Source of the DNA: Octopus vulgaris
Taxonomy: Eukaryota
DNA length: 64,000 nt
Reading direction: 5' to 3'
NCBI GenBank assembly: GCA_951406725.2
Contig: OX597843.1
Coordinates: 6,448,001-6,512,000 of the forward strand
Shown here: positions 31,460-59,783 of the stretch, piece by piece
How positions within the stretch are numbered: position 1 is the first letter of the stretch
Layout of the letters: each line of letters opens with the position of its first letter
Notes under the pieces: model-generated
Seen by the model: only the letters and a program-made list of their open reading frames with translations
Database searches by the model: none
What the model was told of the DNA's origin: nothing
Program-made: the position numbers and the translations under genes

Positions 31460-32306
31460 TACTGAGTGAGAGAGCAGTGCATGCCCTCAAAGTGACACTG
31501 GGGTATAAATATACAAAGCCCAATATACCCACCATGACTATCTACCTGATAAGGGTACACCAGGCACATGCATTGCAACCATATGTACATGATATGGCGG
31601 TCTTATATCAAGATAGACAGCGCTTGACCTTGCAAGAGGGGCCCAGTTAGAATTTTCTTCGGGTCATATAGGCCACCATGCTGAAAAGCTCCTTGAATGA
31701 GGGTTGTTTAAGGATGATGAATGAAACACCCAGGTTCCCAGAAATGAATTATTCAAACTCCAAAGAATTCCTCTCAACAAATGGTTATGATGCTCCCCCA
31801 CCACTTCTGCCCGTGATCAGAGATGCACATATCGTCAGCCACTAAGGGACATGCTCAACTGGTTAAGGTCAAACAACTTCTGATCTTAACTGATTGGAAG
31901 TGTTATCATGTACATTGTTTTGTGTTGGTATAAAAGATGGCCTACAGCAAATATTCTGCTCAATACCACAGATTTGCTTGTCAGTTGTTTGACCTTAACC
32001 AGTTGAGCATGTCCCTTAGTGGCTGACGATATGTGCATCTCTGATCACGAGCAGAAGTAGTGGGGGAACATCATAGCCATGTGTTGAGAGGGATTCTTTG
32101 GAGTTTGGATAATTCACCCTTGGAAACATGGGTGGTTTTTTCAACATCCTTAAACAACCCTTATTCAGGGACCTTTTGAGTGGGATGGGCTACTCGTCCA
32201 GAAGAAAATTGTAACTGGGCCCCACCTGCAAGGTCATGTGCTGTTTATCTTGATATGAGATCACCATGTGCCTAGTGTACCCTTATCAGATGGGTATACT
32301 GGGCTC
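31460..32306. repeat. Inverted pair of a ~420-bp dispersed repeat (another copy 42165-42590)
   Basis: 31812-31878 is the exact reverse complement of 31983-32049; similarity continues outward for ~300 bp. Confidence 0.85.
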
Positions 32307-33239: not shown

Positions 33240-33272
33240 CGTTTCTGGTTCTGCAGGGGTTAAAGGTGATGT
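33240..33272 (-). CDS. CLIP1: Probable 33-nt cassette exon (TSPLTPAEPET)
   Basis: Strong acceptor gtttttaatccctttcag, strong donor ACG|GTAAGT, open frame, phase 0-0 between exons H and I. Confidence 0.7.
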
Positions 33273-35478
33273 CTGAAAGGGATTAAAAACAGTTGAAGAA
33301 ATTAAACGACCCCCTCTTTATCTCCCTAAACATTTTCTCGTTCCTGGTTGCAGTAATTAGCAAGTTCTTTGACGAGATACAAGTGGAAGATTACTGAGGG
33401 GAGAGCCACTGGGTACCAGTAGGGTGTAGGGAGCCCTTCAACAGTCATAATTTATTCGGGGTTTCTACACACGGTCAGATCCATTCCAAGGGACAGGTCA
33501 GTTTTTTTTTTTATTTAGCAGGGACTGTAGAAGGGAACCCATATTTTTTTTTATACTTGCTGAGTAAAAAAAAATTGAAGATAGACATGGTTGAGTGGTT
33601 AAAGGGTTAGTTTCCCAACCCCATGGTTTTGGTTTCCATCCCACTGTGTGGTACTTTGACTCACAAGGCTTTGATTGGTTCAAGACTATAACAAAAGACA
33701 GTTGCCTAAGGTATCACACAGTCGGACTGAACCCAAAGCCACACGGCTGAGAAGCAAGCTCCCTAACCACACAGCTATGCCTCTCCTCCTTTCCTTTCTC
33801 TTCCTGGGTAACCATGGACTCCCTCTATAGCAAGACACCTATTTCTGCCCCTCTATTTCTCTGTCACACTCAAACCTTTCATCCCCTGACACAAGTTCCC
33901 CTCCTGAAATGCCCCTGCTCCTCTCGAAATTCCTTGCCTTGCGAGTCGCTTGGTGACCCTGTCAGTGCAGGTGCCACATGAAATAGCACCCACTACGCTC
34001 TGCAGAGGGGTTGGCATTTGGAAGGACATCCAGCTGTGCAGATAATGCCAAAACTAACCTCACCTGTGCTGGTGCCACGTTAAAAGCACTGAGTCCACTC
34101 TGCAGGGTGGTTGATGTTAGGAAGGGGATCCAACTGTAAAGACCTTGCCAAAACAGATACAATAACCTGGGACCATCTTCTACCTGGCTGGCTCCTGTCA
34201 ACCACCCTACTCATACATGCATGGAAGATGGATGTTGATGATGAAGGCACATGGATCAGTGGTTAGAGCATAGGGATCTCAATCATGAGGTTGAGAGTTC
34301 GAATCCCGGATCGGGCTGCGTGTCGTGTTCTTGAACAAGACACTTTATTCCACATTGCTATAGAAATGAGTTGTGACATCACAGGTGCCAAGCTGTATCG
34401 GCCCCTTTGCCTTTCCCTTGGGTAACACTGGCAGTGTTGAGAGGGGAGGCTGGTATGCATGGGCGACTGCTGGTCTTCCATAAACAACCTTTCCCAGACT
34501 TGTGACTGGGAGGGTAACTTAACAGGTGCAATCCCGTGGTCAGTCATGACCGAAGGGGGTCTGAGTGATATACACACACACGATTCTTTCACTTTCCGCC
34601 TACCAATTTCACTCACAAGCTTTGGTCAGCCCAAAAGTATAGCAGGAAACTACTATAACCCTGGGGTCATGCAGAGGACCTGAACTTGGAACCTTGCAAT
34701 TTGGCAGCAATCTTTTACAACACAACCACACAACCAGCTGATTAAAGTTGTTCTAGGATCCTGCCATTCGTTAGTCTCTCATTAATAACCATTTCAATTC
34801 TTTGTAAATTGTAAGTATGTTTCTACAATTAACGAGGCCTCGGTATATTAAGGTGGACCTCAGGATGGGGCAGGGTCTGTCTACATTAACAATCTCTGTT
34901 AAATAGAATGAGTTCAACAAGGAATAAATAAAAAAACAAATTAACATAGGCAGTAAGTGGGAGCATAGCATAACTTGAAGTTAGGGGATGTAATTGGTGC
35001 GCAGGTAAAGGTGGTGCTAGTATAGGGAGGGTGGCACAGTTTATTGTTATTAACAACAGTAAACGGTTAGAATAAATTGTTGATGAATTTAAGAACTTTC
35101 GAGAGAACGCGAAATAATTTTTGGGGGATAATGGATCTCAAAGCAAAATGATATCTACATATTATGTATAGCTTTATGTGCTTCAAGATACATTATTCCA
35201 GCCCCTCCCCCTTGCCACAAGAAAGAAGGATTATACGACACGGGTAAATGGAACATCCAACGTCTCTGTGCATGTGTGTATATATGTGTGCTTGTGGATG
35301 TGTGTTGGCGATTTTTTTCCCTCTGGATCTTTCCTTCTCCTATGTTTCCGACGAAGAGCTCCGCTCGAAACGTTAAACCCTCCTTCTTCCCTTCCTTCCT
35401 GAGCGTCCAATAATACTATATTTGTTCCACATCCTTGTGTTGTTGTGTTTTTTTGTGCTTTCTTGTTTGGATTAACTT

Positions 35479-35708: not shown

Positions 35709-35861
35709 CTTTGCACCCTCTTCCAGTTTAGTGGCTTCATATGATGTGATTTTGTTCTCTGCCTGGGTCAACTTGTGGGTCAGCTCATCTATCTGGTCAA
35801 GATACATGGTCTGAGTGTCCTCAGACACCTTCAGTTGGCTCTCATAGTCATCCAACTTCCC
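35709..35861 (-). CDS. CLIP1: CLIP1-like exon H (GKLDDYESQLK...KLEEGAK)
   Basis: ttcgtccag|GGG...AAG|GTATGT, 153 nt, phase 0-0, coiled coil. Confidence 0.9.
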
Positions 35862-36245
35862 CTGGACGAAAAGAGATAGAAAGACATGGTCATTAGGGTC
35901 AACTGGACATTCAGACACACACACTACTGGACATTACACACAGCTGGACAAGAGATTATAGTGTTGCCCTGTAGAACCAGGCAACAAAGGGATGACACTG
36001 AATCCTTGTCTATCGGTCAAACAGCTGGACAAGAGAGGGCATCAACTGGCACAAAGCCACCACCACCCTCACTTCTCCCCCCTTCTAGCCGAAGGGGTTT
36101 TTCTCTTGCAAAATATTTGGTGACCCTGTGAGGGCTGGTGCCACATAAAAAAGCACCCCACAACACTCTGCAGAGTGTTTGGCATTGGGAAGGGCTCCCA
36201 GCTGTAAAGACCCTGCCAAAAAGGACCACAGAACCTGGTGTACAC

Positions 36246-36945
36246 AACTGGAACATCTTTGATCATAGGTCTACTGGATCAGGACTGACCTGGGGCTAAA
36301 TATCATCAACAAAGAAGGACACATTAGATAATGTAGTCCTAGATACACTATGTCAAAATAAAAGACAGGATGGTCACAGCTGGAACATCTTTGATCATAG
36401 GTCTACTAGATCAGGACTGACCTGGGGCTAAACAACAAGAAGGACACATTAGATAATGTAGTCCTAGGTACACTATGTCTAAATAAAAGAGAGGATGGTC
36501 ACAGCTGGAACATCTTTGATCATAGGTCTGCTGGATCAGGACTGACCTGGGGCTAAACATCATCAACAAAGAAGCACACATTAGATAATGTAGTCCTAGG
36601 TGCACTATGCCTGAATAAAAGACAGGATGGTCACAGTTGGAACATCTTTGATCACAGGTTTACTGGATCAGGACTGACCTGGGGCTAAACAACCAGGAAG
36701 GACACATTATATAATGTAGTCCTAGATACACTATGCCTGAATAAAAGACAGGATGGTCACAGTTGGAACATCTTTGATCACAGGTTTACTGGATCAGGAC
36801 TGACCTGGGGCTAAACAACCAGGAAGGACACATTATATAATGTAGTCCTAGATACACTATGTCAGAATAAAAGACAGGATGGTCACTGCTGGAACATCTT
36901 TGATCATAGGTCTGTCTGGATCAGGACTGACCTGGGGCTAAAAAG
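36246..36945 (+). repeat. ~120-bp satellite-like array (~6 units)
   Basis: Unit gacacattagataatgtagtcctagatacac...gactgacctggggctaaac. Confidence 0.9.
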
Positions 36946-37002
36946 AAAGACACCACCACCACCACCACTGCCACCCCCATCACACCCCTGTCACCAACTT
37001 AC

Positions 37003-37107
37003 CTTGGCCTCAGTCAATTCTTTCTCCATAGTTTGGGATTTCTCTACCATTTTCTTATTCTTGGATTCCAATTCCTGCAGCTTCGCTTCTTCCTCTTCAG
37101 TTTTGCT
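37003..37107 (-). CDS. CLIP1: CLIP1-like exon G (SKTEEEEAKLQELE...KELTEAK)
   Basis: attttcag|AGC...AAG|GTAAGT, 105 nt, phase 0-0. Confidence 0.9.
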
Positions 37108-38049
37108 CTGAAAATATCGTGGAATAAAAAATAACATTCGCTGACTGACTTTATATATATATATATATACACTAGCAGTATCGCCCGGCACTGGTGTCAT
37201 GCAAATGGCACCGTAATACATCCTTATATATTACTGGTATCATTATCTTATATGTAAAGAATAATATGCTATATGTATGTATGTTATTATAATTATCATT
37301 TTAATAAATAAATAAGTTAACATTTTTAATGTCCAAAAGTTGATGAACCACCTATTGTTCTCCTTCAATTTCTTATTTGCAATATAAACATATATATATA
37401 TACTCTTTATATTTTATTAAACTTTTAATACTTTTGATATATATTTAAAATAATATAAATTAAATTAACTTTATGTATTGGCTTATGTTTTTCATTGTTT
37501 GATTTGCCTAATAGTGGTTTTATCTCTAATTTAATATAATATAATATAATATACTATAAAATTGGATTTAATCCTAAATCTGATTTTTCCCTGTAAGTTT
37601 GGATTTATTCCCTAATATTTTATTATTAATATATATACATATATATATATAACGGGAAGGTTTACGAAAATAAACAAAAGACGAAGGCAGGTGGAATACA
37701 AACAAACAATTGTATTAGTATAGCGCTCAGGAATAGAAATAAAACAAGTCTTTTACGTTTCGAGCCTACGCTCTTCGACAGAAAGATACACAGAAAAGAA
37801 ACAAGGAGAGAAAAAAAATTGCGTGTAGGGGCTAACGATCCAACATAAATATATATATACATATATATATATATGTGACCGCGTGTGTACCGTTGGCGAT
37901 TTTTTCCCTCTGTCTTCCCTTCTCCTATGTTTCCGACAAAGAGCTCCGCTCAAAACGTTAAACCCTCCTTCTTTCCTGAGCGTCCAATAATACTATATTT
38001 GTTCCACGTTCCTCGCGTTGTTGTTTTTTGTGCTTTCTTGTTTGGATTA

Positions 38050-38101
<52 letters not shown>

Positions 38102-38382
38102 CATATATATATATATATGTGTGTAGACATACATACACACACACACACACATATACAGAAAGAAAAAGAGAGAGATGGAGAGAGAGATTGAGACAGACAG
38201 ACTGAATAACAGATAGTTAAAGAGAGAAACAGCTAAAAAAAAAGAAAAACAGAGACAGTGTGACAGAGAGAAGAAGGGAGAGAAAGAAAGACACACAGAC
38301 ACACGTGAAAGACGGTGACAAATAAACAGTGAGAGCCAGACACACAGACATACCCCCAAAACCCCACCCCTCCTCTACTCAC

Positions 38383-38443
38383 CTCCAGGTCGTCCTTCCC
38401 CACCACTTCCTCCTCAATTTGAAACTGAAGGTCTTCCGTTTTC
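38383..38443 (-). CDS. CLIP1: CLIP1-like exon F (RKTEDLQFQIEEEVVGKDDLE)
   Basis: gttgcag|G...GAG|GTGAGT, 61 nt, phase 2 to 0. Matches the CLIP family motif RKVEDLQF.VEEE...K.DLE. Confidence 0.93.
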
Positions 38444-39846
38444 CTGCAACACAAAACACAAACAGAATTATTGGTGTGGCAGGGCATTATTGCCCTCACT
38501 TCCCCACCTCCTTTTATTTCAAGCATTAGCAGACAACAGCCTATATTGTTGCTGTCCCATCTGGGGCTGCAGTGTTTGATCCATCCCTCTTGTTTCAAGA
38601 CAGATGGAATATCATTCAAAGGAGACTTAGCTACTATTTCTAGCAGGTTGAGTGCTCCTGTAGTGGGTCTCTCAATGAGGAGAGAGAAACACAAAGTTTT
38701 ATATAGATGCGTTGGGACATTGAGGCACATTTGGGTTGATACAAATTGCTAAGGGAGTGCCACTGTGATGTATGTCACTACAAGAGTGCCACAATGATAG
38801 GTGTTACCACCAGAGTGCCACCCTGGTGTGTGCGCCACCACCAGAGTGTGTGCCACTGTGGTGTGCTCCACCACTAGAGCGTTACTATGGTGCATACCAC
38901 CACAGAGTGACACTGCAGTGTGTGCCACTACTAGAGTGCCACCACTAAAGTACCACTGTGAGGCATTCCAACAGTGGAGTGTCAATGTGGGTGTGTATGC
39001 CACGTATGGAGAGGCACAGTGATGTTGCTGTTGATGTGTAACATTGTGGGACATGCGACTCATCAAGCACCCCATAGTGTGTTCAACCACTGGAACGTTG
39101 AGGTGTGAGGGTCACAAGTGGAGTGCCACTTGCTAAAGACACATTACATAATGTACTCCAAGATATAATAAATAAATGCGCCCTTTTTAAAGCCTAGCCA
39201 GGCTTTAAAAGGGTCCGGTTTCCTGATTTCTATGGCGTATGTGTTCCCCAGCTGGACGGGAGGCCAGTCCATCGCAGCGTTACTCATTTTTGCCAGCTGA
39301 GTGGACTGGAGCAACGTGAAATGAAGTGTTTTGCTCAAGAACACAACACGTCGCCCGGTCCAGGAATCGAAACCACAATCTTACGATCATGGTGTGCTGA
39401 CACCCTAACCACTAAGCCACGCGCCTCCACACTCCAAGATATACTACATCTAAAACAACAGCAAAAAAATTTATGGGATGGTCACTGTTGGAACATCTCT
39501 GAACATAATTCTACCTGCTCAAGAGGCTGACCAGGAGCTAAAACAACAACAAGATACAGAACAGATCCAAATCGTGGCCGAAGCCAGCGCCGCCTCGACT
39601 GGCTTCCGTGCAGGTGGCACGTAAAATGCACCAATCCGACCGTGGCCGTTGCCAGCCTCGCCTGGCACCTGTGTCGGTGGCACGTAAAAAGCACCCACTA
39701 CACTCACGGAGTGGTTGGCGTTAGCAAGGGCATCCAGCTGTAGAAACATTGCCAGATAAGACCGGAGCCTGGTGCAGCCTTCTGGCTTCCCAGATCCCCG
39801 GTCGAACCGTCCAACCCATGCTAGCATGGAGAACGGACGTTAAACA

Positions 39847-39901
<55 letters not shown>

Positions 39902-39931
39902 CGGATCAAATCCAAAGCCGAAACACGTTAC

Positions 39932-40077
39932 CTCCGTAGATCCTCCAGCTCATTCTCTAACTCGTGATTCTTGCGCTCCAGCTGTTGGGCAACGTTCTTC
40001 CACTTGACCAGGGCATCATCGGCCGAGTCCTTGAACCTGTCGTGCTCTGACCGCATCACAGCCAAATCTCCCTCCGC
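39932..40077 (-). CDS. CLIP1: CLIP1-like exon E (AEGDLAVMRS...ELENELEDLR)
   Basis: ctttccag|GCG...AG|GTAACG, 146 nt, phase 0 to 2, coiled-coil composition. Confidence 0.9.
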
Positions 40078-40203
40078 CTGGAAAGAGGTCGCAAAAAAAA
40101 AAAAGAAAAAGAAAAAACGCATGAAGAGGAGAAGAAAAGATGAGGATTTGTAAAGCTGTTAAGACATCCTCTTCAACCGGTCAGTTCACTTACCATGTCG
40201 GAT

Positions 40204-40323
40204 AGGGGAAGTTGGATGACTATGAGAGCCAGCTGAAGGTGTCTGAGGATACTCAGACCATGTACCTTGACCAGATAGATGAACTGACCCACAAGTTGAC
40301 CCAGGCAGAGAACAAAATTACAT
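40204..40323 (+). pseudogene. Inverted partial duplicate of exon H inside the D-E intron
   Basis: Plus strand reads AG GGG AAG TTG GAT GAC...AAA ATT ACA T, matching the acceptor AG plus the first 118 nt of exon H with 5 mismatches. Confidence 0.95.
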
Positions 40324-40349
40324 AAGCCTCAACCCTAATCTTCACCAAT

Positions 40350-40595
40350 GCAATCTGCCTTGGGGGGCCCTACCAGAAACCGAAGTCTCCAATGGCATAG
40401 TTCTGACACCCCCGTTTCACCCCCTTACCGCGATGAGGAGGGGTTGGACTTTCATGTCTACGGCATTCGCCGCTGGAATAAGGAGCGGTTGGAGGTCCCA
40501 CGGTCGTTAGCCTCAAATTATCAGGTCTGGTCAGCGTTTGTAAGAGATGCCAGCTCAGCCCACCCCGGGTGAATGCTGTCTCAAGACAATAAGCA
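40350..40595 (+). mobile_element. Probable RTE-clade-derived non-autonomous retroelement
   Basis: The start (ctgccttgggggg.cctaccag..gtctcc.atggcatag) and end (gcccaccccgggtgaatgc..caag) resemble RTE 5' and 3' ends as I recall them; not searched. Confidence 0.5.
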
Positions 40596-41174
40596 GAAGC
40601 ATGGTCAAAGGGCATTAAATGATGAAGATTACTCTGACTAATACAGAATGTGATTTTTATTTATAGAATGACATTGTAGGGTGGGTGTGAGAAGCTGGAT
40701 CTGGCCAGTTTCAACATAGAACAAGTATTGGGGGTGTGTGTAAAACTGGTTTAAATGCTAATGAATTGACAAAGGGTGAAGGGTCAATTAAAATCTGGAC
40801 CATGGAAAAGTAGCTTCAACTGACCCCTGTGATGTTACAGGGACCAGTTTTGTCATGAGGGCTCAAAACATCTCATAGTACAAGACATAACAGGAGATTT
40901 GTAAACCTATTCCACCCATCTCTAATATTGGTATTGCTCAATGCAGGGTAGATTTTGCTGTCCACTGCTCTCCTCCTCAACACCAGGCCACCTCAGATGT
41001 TACGTTTCGGAGACTTCTGCAACTTAAACATCTGTTCCAGAGATCCTTCAACCTCTCAATCCAACACATCTATATCTGAAGTGTGGAGGCGCAATGGCCC
41101 GGGCCTTTGGGCCACAGCCCTTCCTACTGATCGCCACTAAGGTAGACAAGATATACAAAGGGTCAGACACTCAC

Positions 41175-41273
41175 CTGGTCCACTTTTGCGGCGGCCCTTG
41201 CCACCTCAGATCTTTCCAGTTCTCGTTCCCGCAACAATTGCTCAATGTGCTCCTCTTTCTCTTTTAAGGCTTT
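41175..41273 (-). CDS. CLIP1: CLIP1-like exon D (KALKEKEEHIEQLLRERELERSEVARAAAKVDQ)
   Basis: ctttgtag|AAA...CAG|GTGAGT, 99 nt. Matches the CLIP family coiled-coil start ALKEK..HIEQLL.ER.LER.EVA. Confidence 0.93.
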
Positions 41274-41489
41274 CTACAAAGACAAATATTAGAAAGGTTA
41301 GGGGTGGACATATGGGGGGACACTGCAAGGGAAGGAGGGCGGAAGAAATCACAACAAGGTACTTGGGCGAACCAGTTGAAGAAGACAGGGCTCGTAACAA
41401 TGGGGTAACACCATGCACTGGTTAACAACAAGGGAGAGGTAATAAAGAGGGCATGATTGGAGAAGGGCTACACTGGGTTAATATCTGAA

Positions 41490-49599: not shown

Positions 49600-50095
49600 T
49601 AACCCCAGGTCATAGATACACTATGTCTTTTAGTCAGACATAGTCTATCTAGGACTACATTATCTAATGTGCCTTTCCTTACTGTTGTTGTTTAGCCCCA
49701 GGTCAGTCCTGATCCAGCAGACCAATGATCAAAGATGTTCCAGCTGTGACCATCCTGTCTTTTATTCAGGCATAGTGTATCTAGGACTACATTATCTAAT
49801 GTGCCTTTCTTTGTTGTTGTTGTTGTTGTTTAGCCCCAGGTCAGTCCTGATCCAGCAGACCTATGATCAAAGATATTCCAGCCTTGACCATCCTGTCTTT
49901 TATTCAGACACAGGGTATCTAGGACTACATTATCTAATGTGCCTTTCCTTACTGTTGCTGTTTAGCCCCAGGTCAGTCCTGATCCAGCAGATCTATGATG
50001 AAAGATGTTCCAGCTGTGACCATCCTGTCTTTTATTCAGGCATAGTGTATCTAGGACTACATTATCTGATGTATCCTTCCTGTCCTGATCCAGCA
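49600..50095 (-). repeat. Same ~120-bp satellite, inverted (~4 units)
   Basis: Reverse complement of the 36246 unit. Confidence 0.9.
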
Positions 50096-53622: not shown

Positions 53623-54979
53623 GCGCAGGAGTGGCTGTGTGGTAAGTAGCTTGCTTACCAACCACATGGTTCCGGGTTCAGTCCCACTGCGTGGCACCAT
53701 GGGCAAGTGTCTTCTTCAATAGCCTCGGGCTGACCAATGCCTTGTGAGTGGATTTGGTAGACGGAAACTGAAAGAAGCCCGTCGTACATATGTATATATA
53801 TATATATATATATCTATATATGCGTGTGTGTGTTTGTGTGTGTGTGTTTGTCCCCCTAGCATTGCTTGACAACCGATGCTGGTGTGTTTACGTCCCCATT
53901 ACTTAGCGGTTCGGCAAAAGAGATCGATAGAATAAGTCCCGGGCTTACAAAAAGAATAAGTCCTGGGGTCGAGTTGCTCGACTAAAGGCGGTGCTCCAGC
54001 ATGGCCGCAGTCAAATGACTGAAACAAGTAAAAGAATAAAAGAAAACTATGACCCGGTGTTACCGGATCTTGTGCTATTGCTTGTTGTCCATTGCCGGGT
54101 CGCAGTAAAAATTTCTTACTAAATCAAGAGCTAAGTTTCTTATCACATCTCAACACATGGCTATGATGCTCCACCACCACTTCTGCTCGTGGTCAGAGAT
54201 GCACATATCTATTTCTTTACTACCCACAAGGGGCTAAACAAGGACAGACAAACAGATTAAGTCGATTACATCGACCCCAGTCCGTACCGTAACTGGTACT
54301 TAATTTATCGACCCCGAAAGGATGAAAGGCAAAGTCGACCTCGGCGGAATTTGAACTCGGAACGTAACAACAGACGAAATACGGCTACGCAGTTTGCCCG
54401 GCGTGCTAACGTTTCTGCCAGCTTGCCCTCTTCAGAGATGCACACATCGTCAGCCACCAAGGGACATGCTCAACTGGTTAAGGTCAAACAACTGACAAGC
54501 AGATCTGTGGTATTGAGCAGAATATTTGCTGTAGCCCATCTTTTATACCAAGACAAAACAATGTACATGATAATAATAATTATTATTATTATACTCTCTT
54601 TACTTGTTTCAGTCATTTGACTGCGGCCATGCTGGAGCACCGCCTTTAATCGAGCAACTCGACCCTGGGACTTATTCTTTTTGTAAGCCCAGTACTTATT
54701 CTATCGGTCTCTTTTGCCGAACCGCTACGTGGCGGGGACATAAACACACCAGCATCGGTTGTCAAGCAATGCTAGGGGGACAAACACAGACACACAAACA
54801 CATACACACACATATATACATATATACGATGGGCTTCTTTTCAGTTTCCGTCTACCAAATCCACTCACAAGACTTTGGTCGGCCCGAGGCTATAGTAGAA
54901 TACACTTGCCCAAGGTGCCACGCAGTGAGACTGAACCCGGAACCATGTGGTTGTTTAGCAAGCTACTTACCACACAGCC
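53623..54979. mobile_element. Inverted pair of SINE A copies (53623-54045 +, 54594-54979 -) with a SINE B between them
   Basis: Direct sequence comparison. Confidence 0.85.
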
Positions 54980-57319: not shown

Positions 57320-58670
57320 ATGACCTGGGGTCAAACAACAGCAACAACAACAAAGAAAGGCACATTAGATAATGTAGTCCTAGATACACTGTGTCTGAAC
57401 AGGAGACAAGATAGTCACAGCTGGAACATCTTTGATCATAGGTCTGATGGATCAGGACTGACCTGGGGCTAAACAACAAGAAGGACACATTAGATTATGT
57501 AGTCCTAGATACACAATGTCTGAATAAAAGACAGGATGGTCACAGCTGGAATATCTTTGATCATAGGTCTACTGGATCAGGACTGACCTGGGGCTAAACA
57601 ACAACAGCAACAGATTAAGACAAACAAATCATCGTTATCTCCTCACCATCACCACCACCACCATCATCATTGTATATATTGGAGGAGGGGGGATTGTGTT
57701 GGGGGTAATTAGGGGAACGAGTTGGAGCTTGTGGGGGGGGGGGGAGGTTTGACTGCAACATCAGCAGCAGGGTAAGGAAGCTGGGAGAAACGACTCCCTT
57801 GTTATGTCCACAGATAAGGATCTTAATGTGGCAGGGTGACACAGTTTGCTGTGCCTGAGGGCGGGATGGGTTGCAGGAGGAAATTTTTGCGGAAGCTGGA
57901 AAGATAAGGATAGGATATTTGCTAAAGTTACACACACACACACACTGAGTGAGTCAGCAGAGATGCCTCTATGGTGTCGCTTGGTCTACTAGAAATAGCA
58001 GCCAAATAACTCTTGAGTCATACCAAAGGGGAAAAGAGAATAACGCATAGGAGACTGTAGTTCTAGATAAGTAATGTCTGAATAAAAGACAGGGATGGTC
58101 ACAGCTGGAACATCTTTGATCATAGGTCTGTCTGGATCAGGACTAACCTGTGGTTAAACAACAACAAGGAAGGACACATTAAATAATGTAGTCCTAGATA
58201 CACTATGCCTGAATAAAAGACAGGATGGTCACAGCTGGAGCATCTTTGATCATAGGCCTGCTGGATCAGGACTGACCTTGGGCTAAACAACAAGAAGGAC
58301 ACATTAGATAATGTAGTCCTAGATACACAATGTTTGAATAAAAGACAGGGATGGTCACAGCTGGAACATCTTTGATGATAGATCTGTCTGGATCAGGACT
58401 GACCTTGGGCTAAACAACACGGAAGAACACATTAGATAACGTAGTCCTAGATACACAATGTCTGAATAAAAGACAGGGATGGTCACGGCTGGAACATCTT
58501 TGATCATAGGTCTGCTGTATCAGGACTGACCTTGGGCTAAACAGCAAGAAGAACACATTAGATAATGTAGTCCTAGATACACAATGTCTGAATCAAAAAC
58601 GGGATGGTCACAGCTGGAACATCTTTGATCATAGGTCTGTCTGGATCAGGACTGACCTGGGGCTAAACTA
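57320..58670 (+). repeat. Same ~120-bp satellite, two arrays (57320-57610, 58060-58670)
   Basis: Direct unit match. Confidence 0.9.
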
Positions 58671-59783
58671 TATAAAAGCACACACATAAATCATGACAGA
58701 CGGGAATCGTCCCTTGTGGGTGCGTCACAAAATGTCTGTCTTCCATATTGAATAGTCTGGCAGAATCTGAAAAGCTGGGAGACCCCCGTCAAGCCCCAAT
58801 GTCACATTTGGCATGTTTCCTGCAGCTGGATGCCCTTCGTAATGCTTAATCTCTTTACAGAATGCAATGGGTTGTTTTGGGTTTTTTTTTTCCATGCCAC
58901 CAACACTGGTGAGGTGGTCATGGAATTTGAAGACTGAAAAAAGAATGGAGAAAAGCAAAAAGAAAAACTCCCTCAACTAAGAGGTGGGGGGAACTCACGG
59001 AAAGAGACCCCGAAAGGATGAAAGGCAAAGCCGACCTGAGAGGAATTTGAACTCAGAATGTAACAACAGAAGAAATTGTTTGTTCCTTCTTGAGCCATGC
59101 CTGGCTCATAAGGGCCAGTTTCCTGGTTCCTTGGTGTATAGATTGCCCACCTGGATGGGACACCGGTCCATCGCAGGTGAGCTGCAAGATGCAGGAGAAA
59201 CTATTTACGAGGGCAAAGTGAAGGGAGGTGGCTGTATGTCAGGTGTTGAAAGGCTAAAGTATGACAGGGGGACAAATACTATAGGTGTCTTACTATAGAG
59301 AAGTAGTGACAAGGGGCAGGAGCAAACTCTTAAAGAACAAGAAGGTGAGCATAAGGGAGGAGATGGATGGTGTCTTGCTATGCAGGGGATTCATGGCTGA
59401 AGGAGATAAGAGGGAGATGGTGATGGGGAGCTGGAGTAAACCCTGAAGGAACAAGGAGAGCATAAGGGAGGACACAGACAGTGGGTCGTGCGAGGGGATG
59501 AGACAGTGGATGCTTTCGTAAGAGGGTGAGGTGGGGAGTGAACGGGTGGCGGGAGAGGTTGAGGTAGTGAGACGAACAAGGGTGGGGATACGGATGATGA
59601 GAAATACCAGTAGGGAGAGGGGTAAGGTGGGAGACATAGGGGTGGATCAGGAAAGAAAGTCAGAAGCTAATGGGATGATGTGCAAGATGTTGGAGCAGGG
59701 ATGCATAAGGGGCCATAATGATAAATGAGGGGGTATTGAGAATGATAGCAGAGAGTTAAGATTATTATTATTATTATAAATAC

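Follow-up and report, generated by a model that had tools for sequence, protein, structure and literature searches.

The window examined here, a stretch of 64,000 nucleotides of the Octopus vulgaris genome (GenBank assembly GCA_951406725.2, contig OX597843.1, positions 6,448,001 to 6,512,000 of the forward strand), contains most of the 5′ half of a gene for a CAP-Gly domain linker protein (CLIP1-like), encoded on the minus strand, and one intron of this gene carries an inverted partial copy of a coding exon that lies further downstream (Table 1). Boundary residues excepted, the CLIP1-like exons match Octopus sinensis CLIP1 (XP_036370729) at 100%, and the copied exon is supported both by this match and by a spliced 4,869-nt contig of a related organism (organism E, below). 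Self-BLAST of the window aligns the two arms over 120 bp with 5 mismatches and no gaps (95.8% identity). The arms lie 4,341 nt apart, and the copy sits three exons upstream of its template.

The five differences between exon and copy are CAA/CAG (35835/40232), GAC/GAT (35817/40250), TAT/TAC (35802/40265), GAG/GAA (35784/40283) and ATC/ATT (35748/40319). Self-BLAST combined with codon reading confirms the original prediction that all five are synonymous third-position transitions across 39 codons. Both sequences encode GKLDD...ENKIT, and the match stops at TCA/TAA because an insertion breakpoint lies there. The copy does not behave as a functional plus-strand paralogue exon, since an in-frame TAG precedes and a TAA follows the 39 codons and no companion exons lie in the window.

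Table 1. Features of the CLIP1-like gene and its inverted exon copy, in positions of the window; organism codes are those of the following section.
Feature	Position	Strand	Remarks
Arm 1 of the inverted pair	35744..35863	-	Acceptor AG and first 118 exon bases
Arm 2, inverted copy	40204..40323	+	Sense on plus strand, antisense in pre-mRNA; differs at 40232, 40250, 40265, 40283, 40319
Segment absent in organism C	40204..40320	.	117 nt, GG instead; CAT at 40321-40323 is part of the recipient site and shared with the donor (3-nt microhomology)
Template coding exon GKLDD...EEGAK	35709..35861	-	153 nt, phase 0; first 118 nt are the source of the copy
Coding exon SKTEE...TEAK, third intervening	37003..37107	-	Approximate bounds
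Coding exon KTEDL...DDLE, second intervening	38383..38443	-	Approximate bounds
Coding exon AEGDL...DLR, between copy and template	39932..40077	-	Control exon
Host intron of the copy, KALK to AEGDL exons	40078..41174	-	1,097 nt; joint 40076-41174 in organism E
Upstream coding exon KALK...KVDQ	41175..41273	-	Control exon
Donor-like GTAAGT beside the copy	40188..40193	-	Together with an AG of the antisense copy, might bound an in-frame cryptic exon of 39 nt, 40194-40232

Presence, absence and polarity in related organisms

A word search with 40120-40620 listed 24 runs from six organisms (coded A-F), 20 of which held words and none of which had half of them. Contigs of four of the 24 runs were aligned to 39905-41300: X2 (organism B), X5 (organism C, which we guess to be DNA), X7 (organism D) and X13 (organism E). 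X2 gave no cover on the CLIP exons and organism D gave none on the flanks of the copy, gaps that do not demonstrate absence; none of the listed contigs bridges the right junction of the copy. Joints to 41082-41083 and deep bins at 40328-40750 were ascribed to repeats and disregarded.

In organism B, a single 211-nt contig of X2 matches 40123-40323 with 0 differences (201/201 nt) and spans the left junction. Four organism B runs from four studies hold 9-17 of 47 words, with 0.5 expected from the exon alone. Because of these two observations an assembly artefact was rejected as the origin of the copy (X2 may share the source of the window). Organism C presents the corresponding empty site: a contig links 40203 to 40321 with GG between them, at a depth of 46.3 compared with 39.6-51 for single-copy neighbors. 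Together with one exon contig, this empty-site contig reproduces the depth exactly in four of four bins, and there is therefore no room for a filled allele. Organism C is otherwise very close to the window, with 0 differences over 39908-40087 and 41101-41300 and few in the flanks of the copy (40168, 40171 and 40351 among the differences listed; 2 in 122 nt); a 373-nt contig that is probably the orthologous flank shows 8 differences and 17 gap letters. Organisms D and E, represented by an exon contig only and by spliced mRNA, respectively, are more distant, with 28 differences each across the AEGDL exon piece. The copy is thus real and a presence/absence difference between very close genomes; it is not conserved and is probably a young templated insertion. 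No RNA run holding words of the copy is on record among the 24 listed, which has no bearing on expression. Scans of metagenomes for the cephalopod locus returned 232 pattern matches, none of them confirmed, and a 22-mer returned 0 matches.

In organism E, neighboring exons diverge very unevenly: 28 of 146 bases differ in the AEGDL exon, compared with 5 of 106 between its GKLDD exon and the copy. The contigs of organism C are interrupted at 41100/41101, leaving 53 letters unplaced, and 41082-41083 is the joining point of many repeat contigs. The segment 41082-41101 looks like the head of an element, which we take to be similar to a short interspersed nuclear element, with a body that is not the same in organism C as in the window.

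The same contigs bear on whether the template was a paralogue, one of the sources offered by the original prediction. A second CLIP locus elsewhere in the genome, itself under coding selection, would explain the all-synonymous differences directly. However, organism C DNA has one exon contig at single-copy depth, no second match was found in the window for any other CLIP exon, and a protein search gave one Octopus cluster among 68 matches. We consider such a template highly improbable.

Comparison with relatives also allowed some of the changes to be polarized, as the original prediction had proposed. Each difference listed is supported by a contig of depth 43.6 or more and stands at least 31 letters from the end of that contig, and the pattern of these differences suggests that a central difference in the exon contig of organism C (depth 51) or E (depth 114.5) would be listed. 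At 40265, organism C and the window exon carry T and organisms D and E do not, so the copy letter is ancestral. At 40283, neither organism C nor organism E shows a listed difference, which suggests that the G of the exon is recent. The organism D alignment ends on 40319; this organism has 4 sampled words, where a match to the copy over 40254-40319 predicts 3.6 and a G at 40283 predicts 0.6, and the copy letter is probably ancestral at 40319 as well. The organism C exon contig differs from the copy at four sites, with 40250 and 40265 among those listed, and its two further differences, near contig ends, are consistent with 40232 and 40319. Observed at 40265 and suggested by the pattern at 40283 and 40319, the changes thus appear to lie mostly on the exon side. 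Since the copy-less organism C already has one or more of the exon letters that differ from the copy, and probably several, the template would have branched before the common ancestor of the window and organism C exons. Escape of the exon from pairing with the copy was ruled out as a cause of the change at 40265, where organism C, without a copy, has the derived letter too.

Origin of the inverted copy

The original prediction estimated the probability of five third-position differences in five at about (1/3)^5, under 1%. If the copy alone mutates neutrally, we obtain 0.03-0.2%, or 0.5% given five transitions. Both this null and the earlier figure omit synonymous drift of the exon, which when added raises the probability to 0.4-1.9% (kappa 1-6), or 3.8% given five transitions. 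The fairer null is therefore 0.4-3.8%, for a pattern that was chosen post hoc, and what stands of the earlier claim is a modest anomaly. These values leave some room for chance acting on an ordinary history, in which a recent insertion from the normal allele was followed by changes in exon and copy that happened to be synonymous or to restore ancestral letters. The events number five in all, the change at 40283 seems to be a recent one in the exon, and that at 40250 could have happened on the copy side. This history is nevertheless unlikely, as it requires a back-mutation at 40265, and probably at 40319 too, and the probability of at least four synonymous differences is 0.15-1.6% at 1.5-3% divergence.

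The original prediction had left two routes, a copy constrained by pairing or a recent copy of a divergent allele or paralogue, and the recent copy of a diverged allele fits best, given the empty site in the close organism C and the four exon differences found there. The simplest account is that the template was a diverged, still-functional allele and that the differences predate the copy, having arisen under coding selection. We place the probability of this reading at roughly 0.6; we infer the allele step from the pattern of differences, and it is partly unexplained. During repair or replication, approximately 115-117 nt of the exon would have been copied, inverted, into the intron 4.3 kb upstream, with return to the recipient at the 3-nt CAT microhomology. 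The template would have been not the resident exon but a more diverged functional allele, maintained as ancestral polymorphism or acquired by introgression within the species group. Most of the differences would be synonymous because they accumulated between two working alleles under purifying selection, and a single one, at 40283, probably dates from later and lies in the resident exon. Recombination or replacement would then have brought the intron with the copy together with the other exon type, and the copy itself is probably neutral or mildly harmful. If this account is correct, a small structural variant preserves a snapshot of an exon allele that no longer adjoins it, marking deep allele divergence or introgression.

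Four parts of this mechanism are supported directly: a close relative has the empty site, the copy is inverted, the right junction shows microhomology, and a second data set contains the copy. Comparison of the filled and empty sites reveals the 3-nt CAT microhomology on the right and AG at most on the left, the latter only if the first G of organism C is a later substitution. An 8-mer in the left flank of the copy, at 40192..40199 (plus strand), recurs on the minus strand in the acceptor intron of the donor, at 35883-35890 (shuffle p 0.006-0.026). A 5-mer beside the right junction also resembles the donor (p 0.02, or 0.3-0.6 on wider tests). Anchored gapped extension of the homology into both flanks scored 0 on each side. 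The 8-mer is possibly an annealing seed, a remnant or a product of chance; with the 5-mer it may point to a genomic template, the two being imperfect annealing seeds or remnants of a longer duplicate.

Two other histories were rejected. An old neutral copy is excluded: given two to three changes on the exon side, it should have gathered 5-8 nonsynonymous changes, and it has none (P 0.005-0.0003). It is also disfavored by flanks that are too similar to those of organism C. Templating by edited RNA was rejected, just one of the five differences being A-to-G.

An assembly phase switch appears very unlikely. In this case the exon from which the copy was very recently duplicated would lie on the same haplotype as the copy, and the exon displayed in the assembly would be that of the other haplotype. 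The organism B contig does end exactly at 40323, the last base of identity, as at a graph fork with a T at the exon equivalent of 40319, a weak sign with no fork on the left, and no aligned contig covers both arms. However, two alleles 4-5 synonymous changes apart would still be required. A copy-identical exon also predicts approximately nine sampled words, and no organism B run holding the exon only is evident among the 24 listed (contigs drop alleles).

Several observations weigh against a diverged allele as the template. The first is its depth: four differences require a synonymous divergence (dS) of 0.13 (95% confidence interval 0.03-0.32), in contrast to approximately 1-3% divergence between the window and organism C elsewhere. 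A simple coalescent gives a probability of 0.9-6% for at least four differences, under assumed parameters set near the heterozygosity of 1.22% and the split of 2.5 Myr given in the available part of 10.1101/2023.05.16.540928. Introgression would ease this problem; in the available text of PMC13093632, admixture in the octopus group is raised merely as a possibility. Second, no living source allele was found: X21-X24, four further organism B runs that we guess to be RNA, were without words, and because the copy shares the letter of the window at 40253 against both D and E, it did not come from either lineage and neither offers a source allele. Third, the left breakpoint coincides with the 5′ boundary of the exon, a coincidence of approximately 2% by our own estimate, and a start at the exon boundary is unaccounted for by a DNA or an RNA template alike. 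Fourth, the donor-like resemblance reaching into both flanks also fits an older, longer duplicate. Finally, polarity was read from the 40 of 92 differences that are listed, 40232 lies outside these, and 40250 is split, with C and D like the exon and E like the copy, which makes its polarity ambiguous.

Retrocopies and processed pseudogenes offer one comparison for the locus. Like a retrocopy fragment the copy begins at an exon boundary, and unlike one it contains no spliced exon junction, its left flank matching the end of the previous exon at AG only, while the filled and empty sites show neither a target-site duplication nor poly(A). Insertions templated by polymerase theta form a class similar to the event proposed here. 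In the available text of PMC8421209, microhomology-mediated templated insertions (MMB-TI) are likewise short, inverted relative to the template, bounded by junction microhomology and found as germline presence/absence variants. Of these features, the existence of an empty-site allele and the inversion relative to the template are both found at the CLIP1-like locus. Unlike the MMB-TI signature, which has its template within approximately 100 bp, the template here is 4,341 nt away, so we do not file the copy as a strict MMB-TI although it works like one (PMC8421209). The left microhomology is uncertain, and the template is a coding exon with five synonymous differences from the resident one. The general kind of the event is known: a small inverted insertion of exon sequence, lineage-restricted and probably without a selected function.

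Predicted pairing of the copy with the exon

In the pre-mRNA the copy is antisense to the exon, and the predicted duplex of the two has an energy of -229.9 kcal/mol, compared with approximately -30 for each arm folded alone and -249.8 for perfect pairing. In the window, 155 inverted pairs reach at least 100 bp, 25 of them with arms within 5 kb of each other, and the 120-bp pair is the most similar of these 25. If edited, 36 of the 40 paired exon adenosines would recode. The duplex contains no special pair types, its two G-U wobbles and three A-C mismatches being expected from any transitions, and the local fold of the copy region is unremarkable (z = -1.21). It is a realistic possibility, though somewhat less likely than not, that the copy pairs with the exon in pre-mRNA and attracts incidental A-to-I editing, provided that the exon is transcribed before the host intron has been removed. 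Removal of this intron before transcription of the exon may occur and would argue against an RNA effect.

Two types of editing substrate resemble this arrangement. Putative editing complementary sequences (ECS) have been defined as reverse-complement matches of at least 30 nt and at least 70% identity within 10 kb, and in TOR1B/TOR1A a reversely oriented, near-identical sequence accounts for clustered editing of coding sequence (PMC8897444, in its available part). The copy, a reverse-complement match of 120 nt and 95.8% identity in the same pre-mRNA at 4.3 kb, falls within this definition. Unlike in TOR1B/TOR1A (PMC8897444), the partner here is a fragment that sits in an intron of the same gene, three exons upstream; a close relative does not have it, and the pairing is predicted. 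Selected ECS are usually kept across relatives; the copy is present in organism B, empty in organism C and not seen in organism D. Young inverted repeats are also described as the main ADAR substrates across animals (available parts of PMC9989829 and PMC6453909). The copy and exon are similar to these in forming a young, high-identity pair within one pre-mRNA, in a lineage with heavy A-to-I editing, and differ in that they are not a transposon pair and one arm is protein-coding.

The original prediction offered a pairing constraint, and one rival account extends it. Selection would have preserved an older copy of the gene's own exon as an RNA-pairing element, either editing-complementary or modulating splicing, while the exon drifted. 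Folding back over 118 coding bases, this element would create a CLIP1 recoding cluster or a splicing change, and organism C would have lost it by a later deletion. The changes seen or suggested by polarity are mainly on the exon side, the copy is identical in the window and organism B, and the flank resemblance hints at a once-longer duplicate; the strength of the duplex and its rank among nearby inverted pairs are also in keeping with this idea. However, pairing as the cause is unsupported. The copy is absent in organism C, and organism D has no flank contig, a hole that proves nothing for this organism. A deletion in organism C would have had to start and stop within a few bases of the ends of homology. 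Selection on pairing should, moreover, also slow the synonymous sites of the exon, and with three exons and three introns between the arms, the host intron may be spliced before the exon is made. No evidence of editing was obtained. We therefore regard a selected pairing element as quite unlikely; if one did exist, copy-bearing and copy-less relatives would form a natural experiment on the birth and loss of a cephalopod recoding cluster.

Whatever its origin, the locus is a ready test case. Some close relatives have a coding exon that could form a near-perfect 120-bp duplex, another has almost the same exons and no copy, and neural RNA of such relatives would show whether one small inverted duplication suffices for a cephalopod recoding cluster. 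The locus is also a trap for editing and single-nucleotide polymorphism calls, as copy-derived reads show one A-to-G and four other transitions relative to the exon. Besides the candidate cryptic antisense exon of Table 1, in-frame forms extended to 72 and 90 nt are open; the cryptic exon is absent from four O. sinensis isoforms and from the O. bimaculoides protein. CLIP terms are absent from the supplements of PMC8382921, PMC7703385, PMC9989829 and PMC5850729, whose site tables may use other identifiers. Literature searches found no paper on this locus, and nothing bearing on it was found in the available text of PMC8382921, PMC9068888, PMC4829317 and PMC7703385 or in the supplement of PMC5850729.

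Elsewhere in the gene, the 20.6-kb repeat-rich intron at 7455-28083 has no CLIP match, and directly downstream of the copied exon lies the short exon TSPLTPAEPET (33240-33275, minus strand), which is skipped in O. sinensis isoform X3. A dispersed repeat of approximately 125-130-bp tandem units, 85-91% alike, occurs in both orientations at 36180-36950, 49624-50083, 57321-57617 and 58037-58684. The most similar inverted pair of the window, 142 bp at 96.5% identity, joins 31903-32044 and 54432-54573, 22 kb apart, and is probably a young repeat.

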